Below, piece after piece: positions 31,056-59,459 of a stretch of DNA of 64,000 nucleotides (its first letter is position 1; every line of letters starts with the position of its first letter). Made by a program: the position numbers and the translations under genes. The stretch spans positions 37,367 through 101,366 of the forward strand of contig CAWCJK010000010.1 in assembly GCA_963795955.1 (NCBI GenBank), read 5' to 3'. Origin of the DNA: an uncultured Verrucomicrobiae bacterium. Lineage in GTDB: Bacteria; Acidobacteriota; Terriglobia; Terriglobales; Acidobacteriaceae. Below the pieces are notes generated by a model. The model searched no databases. It saw only the letters and a program-made list of their open reading frames with translations, and was not told where the DNA came from.

Positions 31056-31141
31056 AGCGCCACTTCAGCTTAGCCGCATCCACATCAGCGCAACGCGCAC
31101 GCTCCAGCGCAACCGCAAGCCATGTTGGCGCGAAGCAATCT

Positions 31142-34711: not shown

Positions 34712-35146
34712 TTACGCCACAACGTCAAGGCCCATCGAACGCGCCGTTCCACGAATCGTCTTCGCGGCAGCTTCAACCGACGCGGCGTTCATGTCGGGCA
34801 TCTTCTGCTTCGCGATCTCCATGATCTGCTCCTCGGTTACCTTGCCCACCTTGTCCTTGTTCGGGGCACCCGATCCCTTCGCCACACCAGCAGCCTTCAA
34901 CAGCAGCACCGGAGCAGGCGGGGTCTTGGTGATGAACGTGAACGTGCGGTCCGCGTACACCGTGATGACGACCGGAATCGTCATGCCGGTCAGCGCCGGG
35001 TCCTTCGTACGGTCGTTGAACTGCTTGCAGAACTCCATGATGTTGACCTGCGCCTGACCCAGCGCGGGCCCGATCGGCGGTGCCGGCGTAGCCTTGGCCG
35101 CCATTACCTGGAGCTTGACATAACCATTGATCTTCTTCGGTGCCAT
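34712..35146 (-). CDS. rplK: 50S ribosomal protein L11.
   Basis: Intact 144 aa, '[31 protein letters not shown]...' unmistakable L11. Confidence 0.95.
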
Positions 35147-35307
35147 GTTGCTTTTCCTCTTGTTGCGGCCTCAAAAACCAACCGCGAATTTTGTGCTGCG
35201 CGAGGAGCTAGAAGGTCCGGTGAAGCGGCCGGGCTGTTCTCCTCAAAACCTGTTGCAAATCCTGTCATCTCGACCGAAGCGAAGCGCAGCGGAGAGACCT
35301 GCGTTTA

Positions 35308-36006
35308 CTACCCCTCAGCCTTTTCAACACTGGCGAAGGAAACCTCGGTGGGCGTCGGCCGACCGAAGATGGACACCATGACCTTCAGTGTCTGCTTGTC
35401 CTCGTTGATCTCGTCCACCGCGCCGTTGAAGTTCGCAAACGGCCCTTCGGTGATGCGCACCTGCTCGCCCTTGGTGAACTTCAGCTTCATCTTGGGCTTT
35501 TCCTTGGTGACGTCCGCGCGATTCAGCATCGCATTGACCTCGGCCTCGGAAAGCGCATTCGGCTGATCGCCGGTCTGCAAAAAGCCCGTAACGCGAGGCG
35601 TGTTCTTCACCACGTGCCAAAGGTCATTGTCGAGCTGCATTTCGACAAAGACATACCCCGGCAGAAACACGCGATCTATCGTGTACTTCTTGCCGTTACG
35701 GATCTCCGTCGTGGGCTCCGTCGGAATCTCGATGCGTCCGACGCGGTCCTCAAGGTGATACGCGCGCACGCGGCTCTCGAGCGACTCCTTCACCTTGCGC
35801 TCAAAGCCCGAATACGCGTGAATGATGTACCACTTGAAGTTGTTGTGCGGCGCTTCCGGCTGCTCAGGCGCAGTCTCAAGACCGTCGGTCGCTTCTACGC
35901 CCTCGTTCGGGTTATAGCTCTCGTCCGCAACCGTGCCGGCGTCAAACGCCGGCGTCTCATTGGTCGCCTCAAGCCCCTGGTCGTTCTGATCGATCTCGTA
36001 TGCCAT
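35308..36006 (-). CDS. nusG: Transcription termination/antitermination protein NusG (with an acidic N-terminal extension).
   Basis: 'WYIIHAYSGFERKVKESL' NGN domain and the C-terminal KOW 'KFTKGEQVRITEGPFANFNGAVDEINEDKQTLKVMVSIFGRPTPTEV'. Confidence 0.95.
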   Translation of the reverse strand: MAYEIDQNDQGLEATNETPAFDAGTVADESYNPNEGVEATDGLETAPEQPEAPHNNFKWYIIHAYSGFERKVKESLESRVRAYHLEDRVGRIEIPTEPTTEIRNGKKYTIDRVFLPGYVFVEMQLDNDLWHVVKNTPRVTGFLQTGDQPNALSEAEVNAMLNRADVTKEKPKMKLKFTKGEQVRITEGPFANFNGAVDEINEDKQTLKVMVSIFGRPTPTEVSFASVEKAEG

Positions 36007-36031
36007 GTGCGTCTCTCGTTGAACTAGCGGC

Positions 36032-36298
36032 TTAGTGGCCGGTGAGCTTCAGGAGCCCCATATCAATGAGGCGGCCCAGCGTCTGGTCGACCAGCACGAA
36101 GAACGCCGCAAACAGAAACACGGTGGCGATCACAATGATGGTGTTCGAACGTACTTCCTCCCGGGTGGGCGTGACCACCTTGTGCATCTCCTGGCGGGTC
36201 TCGCGCAGGAACTGCATCAGGCGTTCGGGTACAGCGGTCGCGCGCTCAATCGCGGCGTTCTCGTGAGGGGCGGTTTCGACGACGGCGTGGTTGGCCAT
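36032..36298 (-). CDS. secE: Preprotein translocase subunit SecE.
   Basis: 'LMQFLRETRQEMHKVVTPTREEVRSNTIIVIATVFLFAAFFVLVDQTLGRLI' is the SecE signature. It sits in the conserved tRNA-Trp/secE/nusG context. Confidence 0.85.
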   Translation of the reverse strand: MANHAVVETAPHENAAIERATAVPERLMQFLRETRQEMHKVVTPTREEVRSNTIIVIATVFLFAAFFVLVDQTLGRLIDMGLLKLTGH

Positions 36299-36392
36299 AG
36301 TGCGGCTCCTGTGACTCCTCTGCTCTGTCTTGGACGGACACAGAGGTCGATCGGTCTTGCAAACAACGCCGGTGCCGAAGCGCCGGTACATC

Positions 36393-36468
36393 TGGCAGGG
36401 GAGCTCGGATTCGAACCGAGAAGTCCGGTTTTGGAGACCGGCAGTTTAACCGTTGAGCTTACTCCCCT
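36393..36468 (-). tRNA. tRNA-Trp (anticodon CCA).
   Basis: Reverse complement 'AGGGGAGTAAGCTCAACGGTTAAACTGCCGGTCTCCAAAACCGGACTTCTCGGTTCGAATCCGAGCTCCCCTGCCA'. Cloverleaf with anticodon loop CTCCAAA. Confidence 0.9.
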
Positions 36469-36548
36469 GTGGGAGCGAGCAAACAGCAAACAGGGAGCAG
36501 CAAACGGCACCTTTCACCTGCTTGCTGTTGGCTGTTTGCTGTTTCCTC

Positions 36549-36698
36549 TTACTTGGTTTCTTTATGATCCGTGTGCTTGCGGCACGTATTGCAAAACTTG
36601 GAGAACTCGAGACGCCCCGTGGTGGTCTTCTTGTTCTTGGTGGTGGAATAGTTCCGGTTCTTGCACACCGGGCACTGCAGGGTAACGATCTCGCGCAT
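36549..36698 (-). CDS. rpmG: 50S ribosomal protein L33.
   Basis: The minus-strand ORF translates to '[49 protein letters not shown]' (49 aa, below the ORF-track cutoff). Location is the classic tuf-rpmG-tRNA-Trp-secE. Confidence 0.85.
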
Positions 36699-37312
36699 GT
36701 AAGTTCTCCTAAGTTTGGCCAGCCACCTCGGCTGGCAAGCAGCTTGGCAGGCTCACGCCCGACACGCCGCGACGCAGGGTAATGTACCCTGCTGATTGCA
36801 TTTCCCCGATTGTAGGCGGGGTCAGACGCACAGATGCTCAGGTGCGTCCTTCACTATTATCCACGAAATCGGTTCATTGCGAAAGTCGGCACGCCTGCGC
36901 AGTTCTAGCCAGGAGTTCACACGAGTCATCGCTCAAGCTGGCCAAAGTCACGCTGGGTGCGAAGGTCTGCTCGTCAGTTTTCGCTGCGACGGCAGCATCT
37001 GCCGTCGCGTTTCGGATCGAAGCAAGCTGGCCTTTCTGCCAGCGATTTGTCCGGTATACGCCTCACGACGGCCAGGACGGTTTGTCGGCTTTCATGGGAG
37101 CGGTGGGAGCGGCGTTCGTGACCTTCATTATCGTCTCCGCATCTCCTGCTGTCACGTCACGCCGCTCTCCGACGAGTTCACCAGCGTTGGATGACACGGT
37201 CGCGACACGACATAAAACGAAGCGGCGAGCCGAAGCTCGCCGCTGTCTCGTTGATTGTTCTCCGGCCAGACTGTAAGGCCGCGCGAAGCGCGTCCCGCCG
37301 TCCGTTGCAGAA

Positions 37313-38500
<1,188 letters not shown>

Positions 38501-45436: not shown

Positions 45437-45542
45437 AACCTTGCTCCTTCACTGTTTTGCTTCCGGGAACGGTGGGGCTTCAGCCCCACCGTGAAACGCC
45501 TACCCAGAACGCGGCTTTAGCCGCTGAGGTAACTCCTTGCAT

Positions 45543-48366: not shown

Positions 48367-48413
48367 GCCGTCAAGAGGAATCTCAGCCCCTCCTGAGCGG
48401 CGATCGTCGTGGG

Positions 48414-48998
48414 CTAGCGGCGGTAGCCGCCGCCGCGGTGTTCGCCGGTTTCGAGGTCGATGGTGAAGGGGACCTCGCGGTCGGCGAACATATCCCAGCC
48501 GTCGCCGTGGAGATGGCCGTCGCGGATCTCGTGGAGGGTGACGCCCTCCCAACTTAGGCGGGCGGTTTGCCAGCGGATGCCGTTGCGGTCAACCGCCAGC
48601 ACGGTGTGGAACCCCGCGAGAATGAGCAGGTTTTCCGAGTCGGCCGCGAGAACGGCGGTGACCGGACGCAGCGGGAGGAAATTGCAGATGGCGGGGTCGT
48701 TGGCGTCGATGAGGTAGCCGTAGCCGCCGGCGACGGCCAGCAGTTGATCCGGGTTGGGGCAGGACCAGAGGCCTGTGGGAAGCCCGGGGTCGGTAAAGCC
48801 GAGCGCGCAGGTGGCGAGGAAGGGGCCGCCGGTTGCGGGGCGGACGGTGGCGTAGAGTGCGCCACGCGCGAGCGCATCCTCCTCGCCGGGAACGTTCTGC
48901 GGATAGACGAACTGGCGCGCGGGGGCGATGAGTGGCGGCCGGAGCAAGACGTCGGCGGTCCAGGTGTGCGGAAAGGCGTCGGTGTTTTTGCGGATCAT
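48414..48998 (-). CDS. Hypothetical protein (194 aa).
   Basis: Intact ORF, translationally coupled (ATGA) to the end of the upstream thiL. No family recognised. Confidence 0.5.
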   Translation of the reverse strand: MIRKNTDAFPHTWTADVLLRPPLIAPARQFVYPQNVPGEEDALARGALYATVRPATGGPFLATCALGFTDPGLPTGLWSCPNPDQLLAVAGGYGYLIDANDPAICNFLPLRPVTAVLAADSENLLILAGFHTVLAVDRNGIRWQTARLSWEGVTLHEIRDGHLHGDGWDMFADREVPFTIDLETGEHRGGGYRR

Positions 48999-50074
48999 CG
49001 CAGGTGCTCCCAGCCATGGGGTTTCAGCTCGCCGCGCGTCCCGTCGAGCACGAGCGTGACGACCGGTTGGCCTCGGCGCCGTGGGACGATGCGACCGATC
49101 TCTGTAATCGGCACGGCACCGAGCCGTTTGGGTACACGGGCGTCGGCGGGGGCGGTGAAGAGAAGTTCGTAGTCTTCGCCGCCGTTGAGCGCGAGGCGAA
49201 GCGCCTCTTCGGCACCCAGCTTTGAGGCGAGCCGGTGCAGCGGAAGGCTCGCGGCGTCGATCTCGGCGGCGACACGAGACGCAGCGCAGAGGTGATGGAG
49301 GTCGGTGGAGAGGCCGTCGCTGAGGTCGATCGCCGCGGTGGCCAGATCGCGGCGGAGGAGCGTCTGACCGGCGGCCAGCCGAGGTGCGGGGAACAGGTGG
49401 GGGTTGGGGTTCTCGAACGGCGCCTTCGCGCTTGCGGAGAACGTGGGAGCAGCTTTGCTCTTGGAGTTCGGCTTCGCAGCAAGCGACCTGAGTTCTGCAG
49501 CGGCACCGCCGAGCGCACCGGTGCAGAAGATGCGATCGCCGGCATGTGCTCGGTCGCGCCGGAGAGCACGGCCTTCGGGGCAGGCGCCGAGGAGCACGAT
49601 ATCGGCGAGGATGTGTTGGCCGGGGGCTTCGGAGGTGTCGCCGCCTGCGAGGGGGACTCGGGCCGCGTTGGCGAGGTCCATGAGACCCCTGAAAAACTGA
49701 TCGAGCCAGCCGGTGTCGTCCGCGATGCTTTTCGGCAGCGCCAGTGAAAGAAATGCCGCGGCAGGGCGGGCACCCATGGCGGCGAGATCGCTGAGCCCGC
49801 GGGCGAGGGTCCGGTGACCCACCGAGCGGGGCGGGTGCCAGTCGCGACGGAAGTGCCGGCCTTCAAGCGAGAAATCAGTGGTGACGACCATCTCCTCGCC
49901 GGGCCGGGGGTGGAGGATGGCGCAGTCGTCGCCGATACCCAGCCGTAGCTGGCCGGAGCGGCGGGAACCGGGCGCGGCGAGGTGCCGGATGCGCTCGATC
50001 AGCGCGAGTTCGCCGCTGCCGGAGGCGGGCAGTTTGCGAGCCGCATTGGGTGATTTTCTTGGCATCAACAGCAT
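48995..50074 (-). CDS. thiL: Thiamine-monophosphate kinase ThiL.
   Basis: 'LIERIRHLAAP...LGIGDDCAILHP...VVTTDFSLEGRHF' plus the AIR-synthase-related C-terminal domain. Confidence 0.85.
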   Translation of the reverse strand: MLLMPRKSPNAARKLPASGSGELALIERIRHLAAPGSRRSGQLRLGIGDDCAILHPRPGEEMVVTTDFSLEGRHFRRDWHPPRSVGHRTLARGLSDLAAMGARPAAAFLSLALPKSIADDTGWLDQFFRGLMDLANAARVPLAGGDTSEAPGQHILADIVLLGACPEGRALRRDRAHAGDRIFCTGALGGAAAELRSLAAKPNSKSKAAPTFSASAKAPFENPNPHLFPAPRLAAGQTLLRRDLATAAIDLSDGLSTDLHHLCAASRVAAEIDAASLPLHRLASKLGAEEALRLALNGGEDYELLFTAPADARVPKRLGAVPITEIGRIVPRRRGQPVVTLVLDGTRGELKPHGWEHLR

Positions 50075-50353
50075 GAGTGAAGGCTTGGGGCGGACGTGCA
50101 GGCCGCGTGGAGGGACGACGAGAGCGCGAAGTGCCGCATTTCAACAGGATATCGGCGGGAATGGGGTGCGACTTCATGACCCACAGGTGGGATTGTTGCG
50201 GGTTGTTTGAGCTAAGTAGCTCCGTTACTATGGAGATACGCACCGGTGGGTTGTATTGCGTCCCGCCTGGTAGACCTGAGCCGCCGCGGAATCAAAACTC
50301 TGTGGCTGGAAGTCCCGGCCCACGGCCTCTACGGACCCGATAGAACCTACACC

Positions 50354-51365
50354 ATGCGCAAACGCTACATCGTCTACGTTACGCGAGGGGAGAAGGGCGA
50401 CACCGATCGTGTCTCCATCCCGATGCGCTACGTGTATGTCTTTGTCGCATCGGCGATGGTGGGGTTGTTCACGATTGCCGGGCTGGCGGGGTCTTATGGC
50501 CGCGCGCTGGCGAAGGCTGAATCGGTGAACCGGCTGCGCGACCAGCTTGCGATGAGCCGCAGCGACTACCAGCACCTGGAGCAGAAGGCGCACGAGCGCG
50601 ATGTGCAGGCGGCAAGCCTGGGGTCGCTCGCAAGTGAGGTTTCGGCGATCTATGGGCTGACAGCGGGCAAGGTGACGCTGGTACACGGGCATGCGCTGCG
50701 CGCCGGGAAGTCGGCGGCCGCGGATGCGGCGAAGGCTCCGCTGAAGGACGAGACGGCCTTCAACGACGACAGCTATTACAAGTCGCTGGACACGTTTTAT
50801 GCGCTTGCGCAACACGGCCGAGCATGGGATTACGCCGCCCCCGCCGGGCCTGAACCCGAGCATGGGTGTGGTGGGCGCGCTCGGTGACCTGGCCGCAGGT
50901 GTCGATCTTGGGACGAGCATTACCGGGACGAATGTGCCGGACATGTGGCCGATCATCGGGCCGATCAACTCCGGGTTCGGGCAGCGCGAGGACCCGATCC
51001 TGGGGCTTGGAACGGGTGAGTTCCACAAGGGCATCGATATCGGGTCGCCGGATGGGACGCCTGTGCATGCGCCGGCGGCTGGCCGGGTGGTGAAGGCCGG
51101 GCTGGGCACGGGCTACGGCAACGAGATCGAGATCGACCACGGCAACGGCATCACGACGGTCTATGGGCATCTGCGCGGGTTCAATGTCGCGGTGGGCCAG
51201 GAGGTCGTGAAGGGCGAGATTATTGGCTTTGTGGGTCACACGGGCCGAGTGACCGGGCCCCACCTTCACTACGAGGTGCAGGTGCGCGGGACGGCGGTGA
51301 ATCCGCATAAGTATCTGCGGACGACGATGGCGGAGCTCGGCGGCGGCGGGGCAACGCACTCGTAA
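50354..51365 (+). pseudogene. M23-family peptidoglycan DD-metalloendopeptidase (N-terminal TM plus coiled coil, C-terminal M23), frameshifted near 50800-50890.
   Basis: The N-terminal part is in 50246..50887. The M23 core 'GIDIGSPDGTPVHAPAAGRVVKAGLGTGYGNEIEIDHGNGITTVYGHL...GHTGRVTGPHLHYEV' is in 50799..51365. Confidence 0.75.
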
Positions 51366-51447
51366 GGCGCCGGATTTGCGAAAGATCGGTTGACTCGGTG
51401 CTCTGGGCGGCGGAAACTGGTCGCCGTATTCGACACGGAGGACAGCG

Positions 51448-52275
51448 ATGTCGACCACCTCCGGGCCCCCGATAGAAAAAATTAAAGAATCCATGCGCGC
51501 GGCCTGGATGGCGGGCGACTTTGGCGTGGTCGCGAAGACGATCTCGGGCGGCGCGGAGGCGTTTGTGGCGCAGCTGCCGATCGCGCCCGGAGCGCGGGTG
51601 CTGGATGTGGCCTGCGGCACCGGGAATTCCGCGATTCCGCTGGCAAAGCGCGGGGCGCAGGTTACCGGGGTCGATATAGCTAGCAATCTGCTGGAGCAGG
51701 CTCGCCAACGGGCTGCGGCCGAGGGCGTGTCGGTCACGTTTGACGAAGGCGATGCGGAGGATCTGCCGTATCCGGATGCGAGCTTTGACGTTGCGGTGAC
51801 TATGTTTGGGGCGATGTTTGCGCCTCGGCCGGAGCGCGTCGCTTCGGAGTTCGCGCGGGTGTTGAAGCCCGGCGGTCTGCTGGCGATGGCGAACTGGAAC
51901 CCGGGGAGCTTTACAGGGCAGATGTTCAGGGTGAGTAGCACGCATGCGGCGCCAGCACCTGGCGTTCCGCCACCTGTGTTGTGGGGTGATGAGGCTACCG
52001 TGCGCGAGCGGCTCGGGCCTTACTTTGAGCAGATTGAGACCACGATCACCCCTGTGGATTTCGATCTGCCGACGAGTCCTGCGGGAGCGGTGACGTTCTT
52101 TCGGACGTACTTTGGGCCGACGCACGTCGCGTTCAGCCGGCTCGAGCCAGACGGGCAGCGGGCGTTCGCTCAGGCGCTGGAAGCGCTGTGGGCTGCGGCG
52201 AATGTCGCACCGGACCCGGAGGCTCATACGGTGATCCGGAATGAGTATCTGAGGGTGACGGCCCGGCGGAAGTAG
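51448..52275 (+). CDS. Class I SAM-dependent methyltransferase (Methyltransf_11/25).
   Basis: 'VLDVACGTGNSAIPLAKRGAQVTGVDIASNLL...' motif I and a downstream 'VLKPGGLLAMANW'. Confidence 0.8.
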   Translation: MSTTSGPPIEKIKESMRAAWMAGDFGVVAKTISGGAEAFVAQLPIAPGARVLDVACGTGNSAIPLAKRGAQVTGVDIASNLLEQARQRAAAEGVSVTFDEGDAEDLPYPDASFDVAVTMFGAMFAPRPERVASEFARVLKPGGLLAMANWNPGSFTGQMFRVSSTHAAPAPGVPPPVLWGDEATVRERLGPYFEQIETTITPVDFDLPTSPAGAVTFFRTYFGPTHVAFSRLEPDGQRAFAQALEALWAAANVAPDPEAHTVIRNEYLRVTARRK

Positions 52276-52353
52276 ATGCGACCTCAGCGCGCGGAGAGAC
52301 CCTCGCATTTCGCTCGCGAAGCCACAAACGCCCGCAGTGCCACAAACCAGACC

Positions 52354-55836: not shown

Positions 55837-56897
55837 ATGACGGACCTCGCGCCTCCCACGCCCGCAAAGACCTCAGCCAGCGCCGTCGCTGGAGCCGCAG
55901 CCAGCACCAAGCTCGGCACCTCGCTGCTGGACCGCGTCGGAAACACCCCGCTCATCCGCCTCGACCGGCTGACCGCAACACCTCCCGGGCATCACCATCC
56001 TCGGCAAAGCCGAGTGGGCCAACCCCGGCGGCAGCGTCAAAGACCGCGCCGCCTCCGCCATCGTCTCCGATGCCCAGCGCAAAGGCCAACTCACCCCCGG
56101 CAAGACTCTGCTCGACGCGACCAGCGGCAACACCGGCATCGCCTACGCCATGCTCGGCGCCGCCCAGGGCTTCCCCGTCACGCTCTGCATGCCCTCCAAC
56201 GTCAGCCCGGAGCGCAAGCACATCCTCGCCGCCTACGGTGCCGAGATCATCTACACCAACCCCGGCGAAGGCTCCGACGGCGCCATCCGCATGGCCCGCA
56301 AACTCGCCGCCGAGCACCCCGAAAAATACTTCTACGCCGACCAGTACGGCAACGAAAACAACTGGCGCGCCCACTACTACGGCACCGCCAACGAGATCTG
56401 GGAGCAGACCCACGGCCGCCTCACCCATTTCATCGCCGGCCTCGGCACCAGCGGCACCTTCATGGGCACCACCCGCCGCCTCCGCGAGCTCAACCCCGCC
56501 ATCCACTGCTTCTCCATGCAGCCCGACTCGCCCTTCAACGGCCTCGAAGGCCTCAAGCACATGCCCACCGCCATCGTCCCGCCCATCTACGACGAGACAC
56601 CTCGCCGAGCGCAACATCGACATGCCCACCGAGCGCGCCTACGCCATGTGCAAGCGCCTCGCCCAAACCCAGGGCCTGCTCGTAGGCATCTCCGCCGGTG
56701 CCGCCGTCGCCGCCTGCCTCGACGTAGCCGAAGAAGAAGCCCGCGCCGGCCGCGAAGCCATCATCGTCACCATCCTCTGCGACTCCGCCGACAAATACCT
56801 GAGCGAACGCTTCTGGTCAGAACCCACCCCCGAAGCCGCCGCACACGACGCCCTCGACACGCGAACTCTACGCCGGCCAAAACGCCTAGCCAGCTAG
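55837..56897 (+). pseudogene. cysM: Cysteine synthase of the Mycobacterium CysM type (PLP-dependent; the CysO-thiocarboxylate-dependent O-phosphoserine sulfhydrylase subfamily), with frameshifts near 55980 and 56600.
   Basis: 'LLDRVGNTPLIRL...', 'SGNTGIAYAMLGAAQGFPVTLCMPSNVSPERK', 'YADQYGNENNWRAHYYGTANEI', 'AGLGTSGTFMGT', and C-terminal 'GISAGAAVAACLDVA' in a third frame. The QYGN..N...HY.GT and PxxYDE segments resemble Mtb CysM rather than CysK. Confidence 0.75.
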
Positions 56898-56926
56898 CCG
56901 TCGGCACTATCTATCGTCCGCCACGT

Positions 56927-57090
56927 CCCTTTTGGGTTGTCATCCCCGAAGGGGATCTGCCCTTTTGGCTTGTCATCCCCGAAGGGGATCTGCGTTGTTG
57001 TTGCACTTGCTTTCCTTCTGTCATTCCGAAGGGAACCTGCGTCAGCTTTTGCACTAGCTTTTCTTTCTGTCATTCCCGAAGGGAACCTGC
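56927..57090. repeat. Tandem array of four short palindromic (hairpin) repeat units between cysM and the JAMM gene.
   Basis: Units 56927-56960 and 56961-56993 ('CC(C)TTTTGG(G/C)TTGTCATCCCCGAAGGGGATCTGC', stem ATCCCC-GAA-GGGGAT). Units 57001-57040 and 57049-57090 ('TTGCACT(T/A)GCTTT(T)C(T)TTCTGTCATTCC(C)GAAGGGAACCTGC', stem TTCC(C)-GAA-GGGAA). Confidence 0.8.
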
Positions 57091-57116
57091 TTTTCGAACC
57101 TGCAGCGACCAACCAC

Positions 57117-57632
57117 ATGACCACAGTCCACGACTCCAACCACTACGCCGCCCAACGCACCCCACAAACCACCGCGGACATCCCCCTCGCCATCCCCCAA
57201 CCCATCTACAACGCCCTACGCACCCACGGCGAAGAAACCTACCCACACGAGTGCTGCGGGATCCTCCTGGGCCGCTCCACGCCCGAAGCCATCACCATCC
57301 ACGACCTCATCCGAGCCGGCAACACCCGCTCTGACAGCGCCCACAACCGATACAACATCTCCCCCGCCGACCTCATCCGGGCCCAGCGCGAAGCCCGCAC
57401 CCGCTCGCTCGACATCGTAGGCTTCTACCACTCCCACCCCGACCACCCCGCCTTCTGGTCCCCCACCGACCTCGCCGAAGCCCACTGGTACGGCTGCGCC
57501 TACGTCATCACCTCCGTCGACGGCTCCACCCCACCGCCACGCGCCCACACCACCAACAGCTTCCTCCTCACCGGCACCACTGAAGAAGACAAGGCGTTCG
57601 CCAGCCAGGCCATCCGACTCACAGCCGAATAA
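57117..57632 (+). CDS. JAMM/MPN+ (Mov34) family metalloisopeptidase, Mec+-like.
   Basis: 'ETYPHECCGILLG' and 'VGFYHSHPDHPAFWSPTDL' give the complete JAMM motif (E...HxHx7Sx2D). The ORF track's 5' extension translates the repeat array and is not credible. Confidence 0.8.
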   Translation: MTTVHDSNHYAAQRTPQTTADIPLAIPQPIYNALRTHGEETYPHECCGILLGRSTPEAITIHDLIRAGNTRSDSAHNRYNISPADLIRAQREARTRSLDIVGFYHSHPDHPAFWSPTDLAEAHWYGCAYVITSVDGSTPPPRAHTTNSFLLTGTTEEDKAFASQAIRLTAE

Positions 57633-57721: not shown

Positions 57722-59459
57722 ATGGGCCGGCACTGCCGCCGCGCTGCACTGCTTGCTCTGCTTTCTCTGCCCGCGCTCTCACACGCGCAAAAGTCCCCCG
57801 GCAACACCCTCACCATCAGCACCCGCCTCATCTACGTCGACGTCGTCGTCCGCGACGACTACGGCCGTCCCGCCCAGGGCCTCACCGCCGCCGACTTCTC
57901 CGTCAAAGAAGACGGCCGCCCGCAACAGATCGTCTTCTTCCAGGACAGCGACACCGCCCGCCCCACCCCGTCACCCGCCAGCCCCAGCAACACCAGCACC
58001 ACCACACCCAGCCAACCCGGCATCGAGTTCACCAACGTAGCCCCGGCCAGCGTCACCGACCCCGCCGCCAACGTCATCCTGCTCGACCTCCTCAACACCC
58101 CCGTCACCGACCAGCTCTACGCCATCCGCCAGCTCATCGCCTTCTGCAAAAAGCTGCCGCCCGGCCATCGCTTCGCGCTCTTCCTCCTCACCAATCGCCT
58201 CCACGTCCTGCAAGGCCTCACCGGCAGCTCCGACCAACTGCTCGCCGCCGCCAGCAAGCTCACCGCCAACGACCTCCAGCTCGCCGACTCACGCGACGCT
58301 CGCATGCAGATGGCGGACATCGTCACCGCCTTCGCCAAGGCCATAGGCCCCGACCCGGGCGGTTCCGCCGGCCACATGCGCGCCGAACTGGACAACGAGC
58401 AGGCCGAGAACCTCGCGCAACGCTTCCGCACCACCGGCGACGCCTTCGCCCAGATCGCGCGCGCCGTCTCCGGCTACCCCGGCCGCAAAAACCTCCTCTG
58501 GCTCGCCGAAGACTTCCCCTTCGGCGTCGGCGCGCAGCTTCAAATGGACCGCGCCGACGAGGCCCTCGACGTCCGCGACACCAACAGCCTCGTAGCCAAC
58601 CAGCAGATCGCCCTTTACCCGATCAGCCTCGCCGGCCTGCAAACCGAAGGCGTCGGCGCCGCCTCCAACGGCCAGGGCGAGGTCTCGCTCATCGGCGGCC
58701 CCACCGGTTCAGCCTCCAATCCGCAGGCCAACGACACCCTCCGCGACCAGTTCACGGCCCGCACGTCGATGTACTACGCCATGAACGATCTCGCTCACAA
58801 CACCGGCGGCGAAGCCTTCCATGGCACCAACGACATAGCCGGCAGCATCCGCCGCGCCGTCGACGACGGCTCCCAGTACTACACCCTCGCCTATCGCCCC
58901 TCGAACCAGAAGTCGGACGGCCACCTTCGCGCAGATCAGCATCGCCCTCGCCAGGCACGGCTATCACCTCAGCTATCGCCGCAGCTACCTCGCCACACCC
59001 GAAGCCGACGGCACGCGCGGCGTCGACCTCGAACTCGCCGCCGCCCTGCAGCCCGGCACACTCGACGCCAGCCTGCTCCGTCTCCGCGCCGATCTGGTGC
59101 AGGACCCCGCCAGCCACCACGTCGCCGTCGACATCACGCTTGACGCCAGCGATCTCTCCTACCGCATCGACCCCGCCGGCCATCGCCACACCCAGCTTCT
59201 CGCCGAGCTGATCGCCCTGCCCGCTCCAGGCGCCAACACCAAACCCACCCCGCCCCCACAAACCCAGGCCGTCCTCAACCTCGACCTCGACCCCACCCAA
59301 TACGCCGGCCTGCTCCGCACCGGCCTCCACTTCCGCGAGCAACTCCCCGCCACCTTCGCCAACCAGGACCTCCGCCTCGGCGTAGCCGAAACCAACACCC
59401 ACCGTTTCGGCACCCTGACCATGCCTCGCAACCCCGGCCCAATCACTCCAGCGAATTGA
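57722..59459 (+). pseudogene. VWFA-related acidobacterial-type secreted protein (vWA domain), with a frameshift near 58920.
   Basis: Signal peptide. 'LIYVDVVVRDDYGRPAQGLTAADFSVKEDGRPQQIVFFQ' is the hallmark N-terminus of the Acidobacteria VWFA-related family. The C-terminal roughly 120 aa are in ORF 59097..59459. Confidence 0.7.

Follow-up and report, generated by a model that had tools for sequence, protein, structure and literature searches.

A four-unit hairpin array between a cysM-type gene and a JAB metalloprotease gene probably belongs to a dispersed, REP-like repeat family of Acidobacteriaceae whose orientation follows the DNA strand

The spacer between a cysM-type gene and the downstream JAB metalloprotease gene in the 64,000-nt stretch of DNA analyzed here (hereafter the window) contains an array of short hairpins that we interpret, with a probability of about 0.8, as four copies of a short, non-coding, dispersed repeat of the Acidobacteriaceae, similar to the REP/BIME elements, which was inserted at this site and then duplicated in tandem. 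The family to which these copies belong is dispersed over the intergenic regions of other genomes and is absent from the orthologous site in relatives, and its orientation is fixed with respect to the compositional asymmetry of the chromosome strands, irrespective of the direction of the neighboring genes. The insert found in the window probably has no designed function.

The gene upstream of the array encodes a PLP-dependent protein of the cysteine-synthase type (cysM, 55837-56897, + strand; Pfam PALP), and the downstream gene, with its ATG at 57117, encodes a JAMM/MPN metalloprotease (57117-57632, + strand; Pfam Prok-JAB/JAB), the spacer from the cysM stop codon (56895-56897) to the JAB start (57117) being 219 nt long. 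The original prediction had placed four hairpin-forming repeat units in this spacer, and they were indeed found there, all on the + strand and spanning positions 56927-57094. Unit 1 (56927-56960; nhmmer E=5.7e-10) is made up of the leader CCCTTTTGGGTT and the core GTCATCCCCGAAGGGGATCTGC (56939-56960), whose stem arms (56942-56947 and 56951-56956) enclose a GAA loop. Unit 2 (56961-56993; nhmmer E=2.4e-10), with the same core at 56972-56993 and stem arms at 56975-56980 and 56984-56989, is a 33-nt tandem duplicate of unit 1 that differs by one mismatch (97% identity), and this spacing is the tightest among the family copies surveyed. Unit 3 (57001-57044; nhmmer E=1.1e-6) carries the leader TTGCACTTGCTTTCCTTCT, the core GTCATTCCGAAGGGAACCTGC (57020-57040) and a tail, and unit 4 (57049-57094; nhmmer E=1.1e-12), which consists of the leader TTGCACTAGCTTTTCTTTCT, the core GTCATTCCCGAAGGGAACCTGC (57069-57090) and a TTTT tail, is the nearest of the four to the family consensus. 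Units 3 and 4 (48-50 nt) show 83-94% identity over their parts and have the leader pattern TTGCACT.GCTTT.CTT.CT.

The perfect stem-loop that had been attributed to every unit was observed in units 1 and 2 (6 bp, GAA loop) and in unit 4 (5 bp) but not in unit 3, whose 5' arm is one C short and which folds into only 4 bp with a 4-nt loop. This missing C could be a sequencing error, since apparent frameshifts are present in neighboring genes of the assembly. Three reading frames are needed to read cysM, namely that of 55837 for the N terminus, the following one for the PALP core (from about position 55975) and the one ending at 56897 for the C terminus (from about position 56600); the two apparent frameshifts suggest either that cysM is a decaying gene or pseudogene or that the assembly contains indel errors. 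The gene that follows JAB (57722-59143) codes for a signal peptide and an acidobacterial VWFA-like N terminus, and the Arg/Pro-rich end of its product looks out of frame, which suggests a further frameshift.

The core pattern gave zero matches in dinucleotide shuffles of the window, and a profile built from 191 units of other genomes matched exactly the four units described above in the whole 64 kb (E values from 1e-12 to 1e-6), which means that the window contains one cluster of the family. Single units form weak hairpins, with energies of -2 to -4.6 kcal/mol for DNA and -4.6 to -8.7 kcal/mol for RNA that were no better than those of shuffles; the significance of the array rests, therefore, on its repetition and on its family membership, with fold energy left out of account. 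In agreement with the earlier view that the array is not a CRISPR, it is composed of two unit types, and the gaps of 11-28 nt between cores are repeated leader sequence. The translation of the repeats by the ORF predictor had been regarded as naive, and the peptide 'SSPKGIC' is indeed the product of a spurious small ORF.

The original prediction had also proposed a search for other copies of GTCATYCCCGAAGGGRAYCTGC, and an exact search of one genome per species with this sequence retrieved at least 119 stretches carrying the core in other genomes, nearly all of them from Acidobacteriaceae. Among the matches listed, the host genera were Granulicella, Edaphobacter, Tunturiibacter and Bryocella, together with unnamed Acidobacteriaceae MAGs, and several loci were present per chromosome, with six on one chromosome of 4.5 Mb. 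The core was found in cultured isolates of G. rosea, G. mallensis, G. paludicola, G. aggregans and Tunturiibacter species. A few matches came from MAGs labeled Saprospiraceae, Verrucomicrobia or Acetobacteraceae (L011, L028, L066, L067 and L108), and these may be mis-binned acidobacterial contigs or true occurrences outside the Acidobacteriaceae. A phage origin was not supported, as only 3 matches were obtained in 2.9 million viral contigs.

The family core, GTCATYCC-C(GNA)G-GGRAYCTGC, is preceded by a T-rich leader of 14 nt and followed by a TTTT tail, so that a unit reads as a leader (TTGCCTTTCTTTTT/TTGCCTTTcTtTTT), the 22-nt core GTCATTCCCGAAGGGAATCTGC and TTTT. The core itself consists of the feet GTC and CTGC placed around a 6-bp stem in which a C-G pair closes a GNA triloop. 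When 127 isolated copies were aligned, conservation was confined to positions -14 to +26 around the core, with background beyond these limits, which sets the unit length at about 40 nt. Counted on the same strand, 130 copies were single and 24 direct arrays contained 2-9 copies; orientations were mixed in only 8 clusters, and the largest locus, L009, contained 15 copies in all. Relatives with a longer insert but with the same feet and lower stem were also found, e.g. GTCATTCCGCAGCGCAGCGGAGGAATCTG and GTCATCCTGAGCG...GAAGGACC.

At the stem position that the scan left free, the pair was T..A in 137 copies, C..G in 36 and mismatched in 8. Counted by sequence types, this covariation corresponds to one compensated pair, and it could reflect two subfamilies derived from one compensated change. 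In the copies outside the scan selection, the loop variants were GCA (15 copies), GTA (2 copies) and GGA (1 copy), and changes affected the first loop base in 3 copies and the third base in none. Because the variation falls mostly on the middle base, the loop can be described as GNA closed by C-G, which we take to be a known extra-stable DNA mini-hairpin motif. Both the covariation of the stem pair and the pattern of loop variants were counted as evidence of selection on the hairpin.

The genomic context of the clusters was analyzed with a codon log-odds gene caller whose output agreed with the database annotation of genes in locus L001. Twelve of the 142 clusters lay inside called ORFs, mostly as ORF-edge effects, and the remainder were intergenic. 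When genes were called on both sides, the cluster was located between co-directional genes in 63 cases, between convergent genes in 30 and between divergent genes in 8, and the usual position of the core was 20-60 nt past a stop codon. One copy was observed within an array of 11 tRNA genes (L004, 684-905), between those for tRNA-Glu and tRNA-Arg.

The orientation of the family was found to depend on the DNA strand, which predicts it better than the direction of the neighboring genes does. The strand that reads GTCAT was the C-rich strand in 99 of 107 loci and, when the repeats were masked, in 111 of 117 clusters (about 95%). The clusters flanked on both sides by genes of the G-rich strand were still on the C-rich strand, antisense to these genes, in 10 out of 10 cases. 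By means of Pfam, flanking genes were confirmed in six of the eight loci that contain these clusters, with both sides confirmed in L033, and the genes code for TyrS/TrpS-type synthetases, Wzz, ABC-F, P450, PfkB and a LOG-family protein. Since these ten cases obey the rule, the orientation is set at the DNA level and not by transcription. Copies of a wider GTCATYC...GRAYC superfamily in loci that had been chosen without the motif followed the same C-rich strand rule in 8 out of 10 cases. The sense third-position skew was -0.45 in the genes co-oriented with the repeat vs +0.18 in the anti-oriented genes, indicating that the skew is a property of the strand rather than of the gene, and in the window the Pfam-verified genes of both strands have the same sign of top-strand skew. 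The absolute GC skew of the 8-kb loci had a median of 0.16 and a maximum of 0.42, and similar behavior was observed in isolates.

The top strand of the window (1-64000) is C-rich regardless of gene orientation, with a GC skew of -0.05 to -0.32 per 2 kb. The exception is an island at 48400-52300 that includes an AIR-synthase-related gene and shows a skew of +0.1 to +0.2; this island may have been inverted or recently imported. As a rule, the leading strand is expected to be G-rich and to carry the majority of the genes. These two expectations are mutually incompatible in these genomes, because the tuf, nusG and rplK genes (34712-38500 of the window, - strand) lie on the G-rich strand whereas most genes, about 60-70%, lie on the C-rich strand. 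As for indicators of the leading strand, the orientation of tRNA genes with respect to the skew was mixed, a search of the loci studied for rRNA, ribosomal-protein and dnaA genes yielded none, and the sign of the skew along complete chromosomes showed no significant pattern with position (first half, 6 negative and 4 positive; second half, 3 and 7, respectively). Two heptamer arrays, (AGCAAAC)x4.6 and (CTGTTTG)x3.9, form an inverted repeat at 36478-36544 of the window and adjoin a tRNA gene (36398-36467).

A role of the family at the RNA level, with the units acting as intrinsic terminators or as protective hairpins at 3' ends and the array terminating or stabilizing the cysM transcript, is an improbable alternative explanation for its maintenance. 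Such a role would be consistent with the orientation of the clusters in co-directional spacers, 48 of them sense and 15 antisense, with the excess of convergent over divergent spacers, with the typical location of the cores shortly after stop codons and with the TTTT tail, and unit 4, the only one of the four, was terminator-like in a loose scan. Nevertheless, the sense bias is explained as a by-product of the location of most genes on the C-rich strand, and the antisense orientation in all ten cases in which the flanking genes are on the G-rich strand is not that of intrinsic terminators. The stems of 5-6 bp are weak as RNA, as indicated above, and the T run does not follow them directly but only after the four bases CTGC. 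It could be, however, that some copies were co-opted as weak terminators.

It is also rather unlikely that the units are immobile and act as oriented protein-binding or replication signals kept on one strand by selection, as would be the case of KOPS, Chi or single-strand priming hairpins. The single strand orientation of about 95% of the clusters and the C-G-closed GNA loop, presumably extra-stable in DNA, would agree with such signals, and so would some copies, e.g. those of L056, L086 and L088, which, as judged by the flanking sequence, occupy apparently orthologous positions in different genomes. However, presence and absence vary at orthologous sites; thus, the ABC-F/P450 spacer contains a copy in L033 and none in the orthologous spacer of the window (31056-31141). 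Moreover, the tandem arrays and the near-identical local duplicates resemble the products of selfish amplification, and the single cluster of the 64-kb window would be sparse for an architectural signal.

The comparison of the same junction in relatives pointed to an insertion. The family core was found in the cysM-JAB spacer of none of the 73 metagenomic relatives that keep the gene pair (0/73), and in 41 of these 73 relatives the cysM stop codon lies at most 10 nt from the conserved JAB core or overlaps the JAB gene, the junction being essentially spacerless. In L001, the closest long relative, whose JAB protein is 72% identical, cysM and JAB overlap by 4 nt and a single copy of the repeat is located after JAB instead. 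The nine relatives with a spacer longer than 100 nt have mostly other inserts there. Members of the GTCATYC...GRAYC superfamily are present at the cysM-JAB junction in L131, L132 and L177, and an inverted pair of superfamily units is present in L194. The lack of the array in the relatives and the presence of other palindromic inserts at the same junction argue for an insertion and not for an attenuator, and the cysM-JAB junction is a permissive site that has been repeatedly entered by palindromic elements. Other relatives, some with shorter spacers, have unrelated long palindromes at the junction, and perfect ones, e.g. GGGTAATTGGGTAAAT...ATTTACCCAATTACC, were observed in the cysM-JAB spacers of other Acidobacteria (L160, L175, L180, L191 and L204).

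The original prediction had left room for a structured regulatory RNA or a multi-hairpin attenuator acting between the two genes, but a cis-regulatory RNA specific to the cysM-JAB pair is hardly credible. The array is indeed on the sense strand between the two genes of a conserved pair, and the + strand of the spacer (223 nt as folded) folded somewhat better than its shuffles (z = -2.3). Nevertheless, a palindrome repeated in tandem would be expected to fold better than shuffles, none of the 73 relatives shares the array and most of them are spacerless, and the core unit is present at more than 100 unrelated loci, with an orientation that tracks the DNA strand rather than the direction of transcription. 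In addition, Rfam gave nothing relevant for the whole window at gathering thresholds and no match for the spacer at E<=10. Finally, a local or assembly-derived duplication of no wider meaning, which the earlier prediction had held in reserve and to which the 97% identity of units 1 and 2 and the apparent frameshifts nearby might point, can practically be discarded in view of the occurrence of the 22-nt core in more than 100 independent assemblies, cultured isolates included, and of the divergence between units 3 and 4.

To return to the preferred reading, i.e. inserted and tandem-duplicated copies of a REP-like family, a tblastn search of all the loci studied was carried out with E. coli RayT as query. 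A single RAYT match was obtained among about 120 motif-selected loci, at L063:5405-5866, and this region matched Pfam Y1_Tnp and the NCBIfam model NF047646 'REP-associated tyrosine transposase' (102.8 bits, with a cut-off of 80). The L063 RAYT has 442 homologues, the best 120 of which are 66-100% identical. In the five RAYT loci compared, the RAYT gene is on the C-rich strand (5/5) and a double hairpin, CTTCTAGGTAaGCCAAGCCTTcAGGCTTGGC...GGGGGCTTTAGCCCCTGGGGTATGC, is located within about 20 nt upstream of the gene (5/5). This double hairpin differs from the GTCAT core, and in two loci a direct copy of it is found downstream as well. A GTCAT-type hairpin is present about 270-440 nt upstream of the RAYT gene in two of the five loci, and on one strand of L063 and L125 a GTCAT-type hairpin is followed by a long (GTTGCN)n hexamer tract, then by the double hairpin and finally by the RAYT gene. 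The double-hairpin family lies on the C-rich strand in 20 of 24 copies. One copy of it, ACGGTGGGGCTTCAGCCCCACCGT...GCGGCTTTAGCCGCTGAGGTAAC, was observed in the window at about 45466-45535 (+ strand). Long hexamer tracts similar to microsatellites, e.g. (GTTGCN)n, (GCCCTT)n and (GTTGTT)n, are located next to hairpin units in L063 (4985-5300 and 5925-6200), L007, L009 and L043, and in every case tract and units share the strand.

Taken together, these results indicated that an enzyme of a suitable type is present in the clade, along with a repeat landscape that is modular and BIME-like, the RAYT being a candidate enzyme for the GTCAT core. Because a different double hairpin flanks the RAYT gene, it is by extension that we infer a mobilization of the GTCAT family via single-stranded DNA. 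An element of the family was probably inserted between cysM and JAB and then multiplied there by local tandem duplication. The propagation or the retention of the family at large may depend on a strand-specific, DNA-level process tied to replication, during which the hairpin would form in single-stranded DNA. The likeliest such process, suggested by analogy with the REP/RAYT and IS200/IS605 systems and held somewhat below even odds, might be the recognition of the single-stranded DNA hairpin by an HUH tyrosine transposase. In a wider scheme, which we regard as doubtful, the GTCAT...CTGC units would make up a modular system together with the (GTTGCN)n tracts and the GGCTTYAGCC double hairpins. 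Either the single-copy RAYT of the Acidobacteriaceae or another HUH enzyme would propagate this system on one of the replication strands, and the C-G-closed GNA mini-hairpin would form in exposed single-stranded DNA. At the junction analyzed here, the insert would probably uncouple the translation of the two genes and place four weak hairpins in the spacer of any joint cysM-JAB transcript.

The earlier suggestion of a REP/BOX-like or MITE-like family of palindromes was correct as to a dispersed, REP/BIME-like nature and not supported as to a MITE-like one, since the 127 isolated copies have no terminal inverted repeats, second arm or conserved target motif outside positions -14 to +26. The family is a stem-loop palindrome (22-nt core) of intergenic location, and it resembles the REP/BIME elements of E. 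coli and other Proteobacteria, which are short, imperfect, intergenic palindromes often located just past stop codons and dispersed, as single copies or in mosaics with other short motifs. It differs from the E. coli REPs in that it lacks the GTAG foot (the feet are GTC and CTGC, and the reverse strand reads GCAG), in its much shorter stem (6 bp, with a 3-nt loop) and in the asymmetry that the T-rich leader and the TTTT tail confer on the unit. Moreover, its clusters are mainly direct tandem arrays, whereas REP/BIME elements alternate inverted copies, and about 95% of its clusters keep to a single DNA strand, a locked orientation that, to our knowledge, is not among the properties described for the E. 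coli REPs.

Similarity to the REPIN/RAYT system of Pseudomonas lies in the presence in the clade of a bona fide RAYT embedded in tracts with GTCAT-type hairpins. However, this RAYT is flanked by the other double hairpin, in direct orientation, and the GTCAT family consists mostly of singletons, not of inverted doublets. The REPtron layout, with copies flanking the RAYT gene, was not observed for the GTCAT core in the five RAYT loci. With the IS200/IS605 elements the family shares hairpin-defined ends and the lack both of terminal inverted repeats and of any target motif conserved in the flanking sequence. The established hallmark of IS200/IS605, cited in the abstract of PMC6006769, is a strong bias of orientation with respect to the replication strand; in the GTCAT family, the bias was observed relative to strand composition (111 of 117 clusters). 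The GTCAT unit differs from IS200/IS605 in that it has no coding capacity and no pair of left and right ends. High-copy atypical hairpins linked to Y1 transposases, the class 3 TnpA-Y1 repeats of Acidobacteria and Planctomycetes, are described in the same work (PMC6006769), and TIRYT genes have been described in G. mallensis, T. saanensis and A. capsulatum (PMC3733652). Both are high-copy atypical hairpins of Acidobacteria with a link to Y1 transposases, but they have a 5' CnGA foot or TIRs of the GGGGWSAS type, from which the GTCAT family differs, and the GTCAT...CTGC core is given neither in PMC6006769 nor in PMC3733652. The core and the family were not described in the papers searched, whether by sequence or by topic, RepRanger (PMC12306157) giving only palindrome counts for G. 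aggregans. Among REP-like elements, the family is apparently a variant not described so far, and its strand rule is unusually strict; the locus itself is ordinary.

For the annotation of Acidobacteriaceae genomes, the GTCAT units should be masked as repeats, because they are routinely translated as spurious small ORFs. At the locus studied here, the relative expression of cysM and JAB may change, since the insert parts two genes that are translationally coupled in most relatives. The orientation of the family, which obeys the DNA strand in about 95% of the clusters whatever the direction of the genes, points to a replication-coupled mechanism acting on single strands, and the presence in the clade of a conserved RAYT and of cultured isolates makes enzyme-substrate tests feasible. 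If the modular system proposed above were true, the family would represent a new, strand-locked class of REP-like element and would serve as an intrinsic indicator of the direction of replication in genomes with an unusually strong local GC skew (median 0.16, up to about 0.4).
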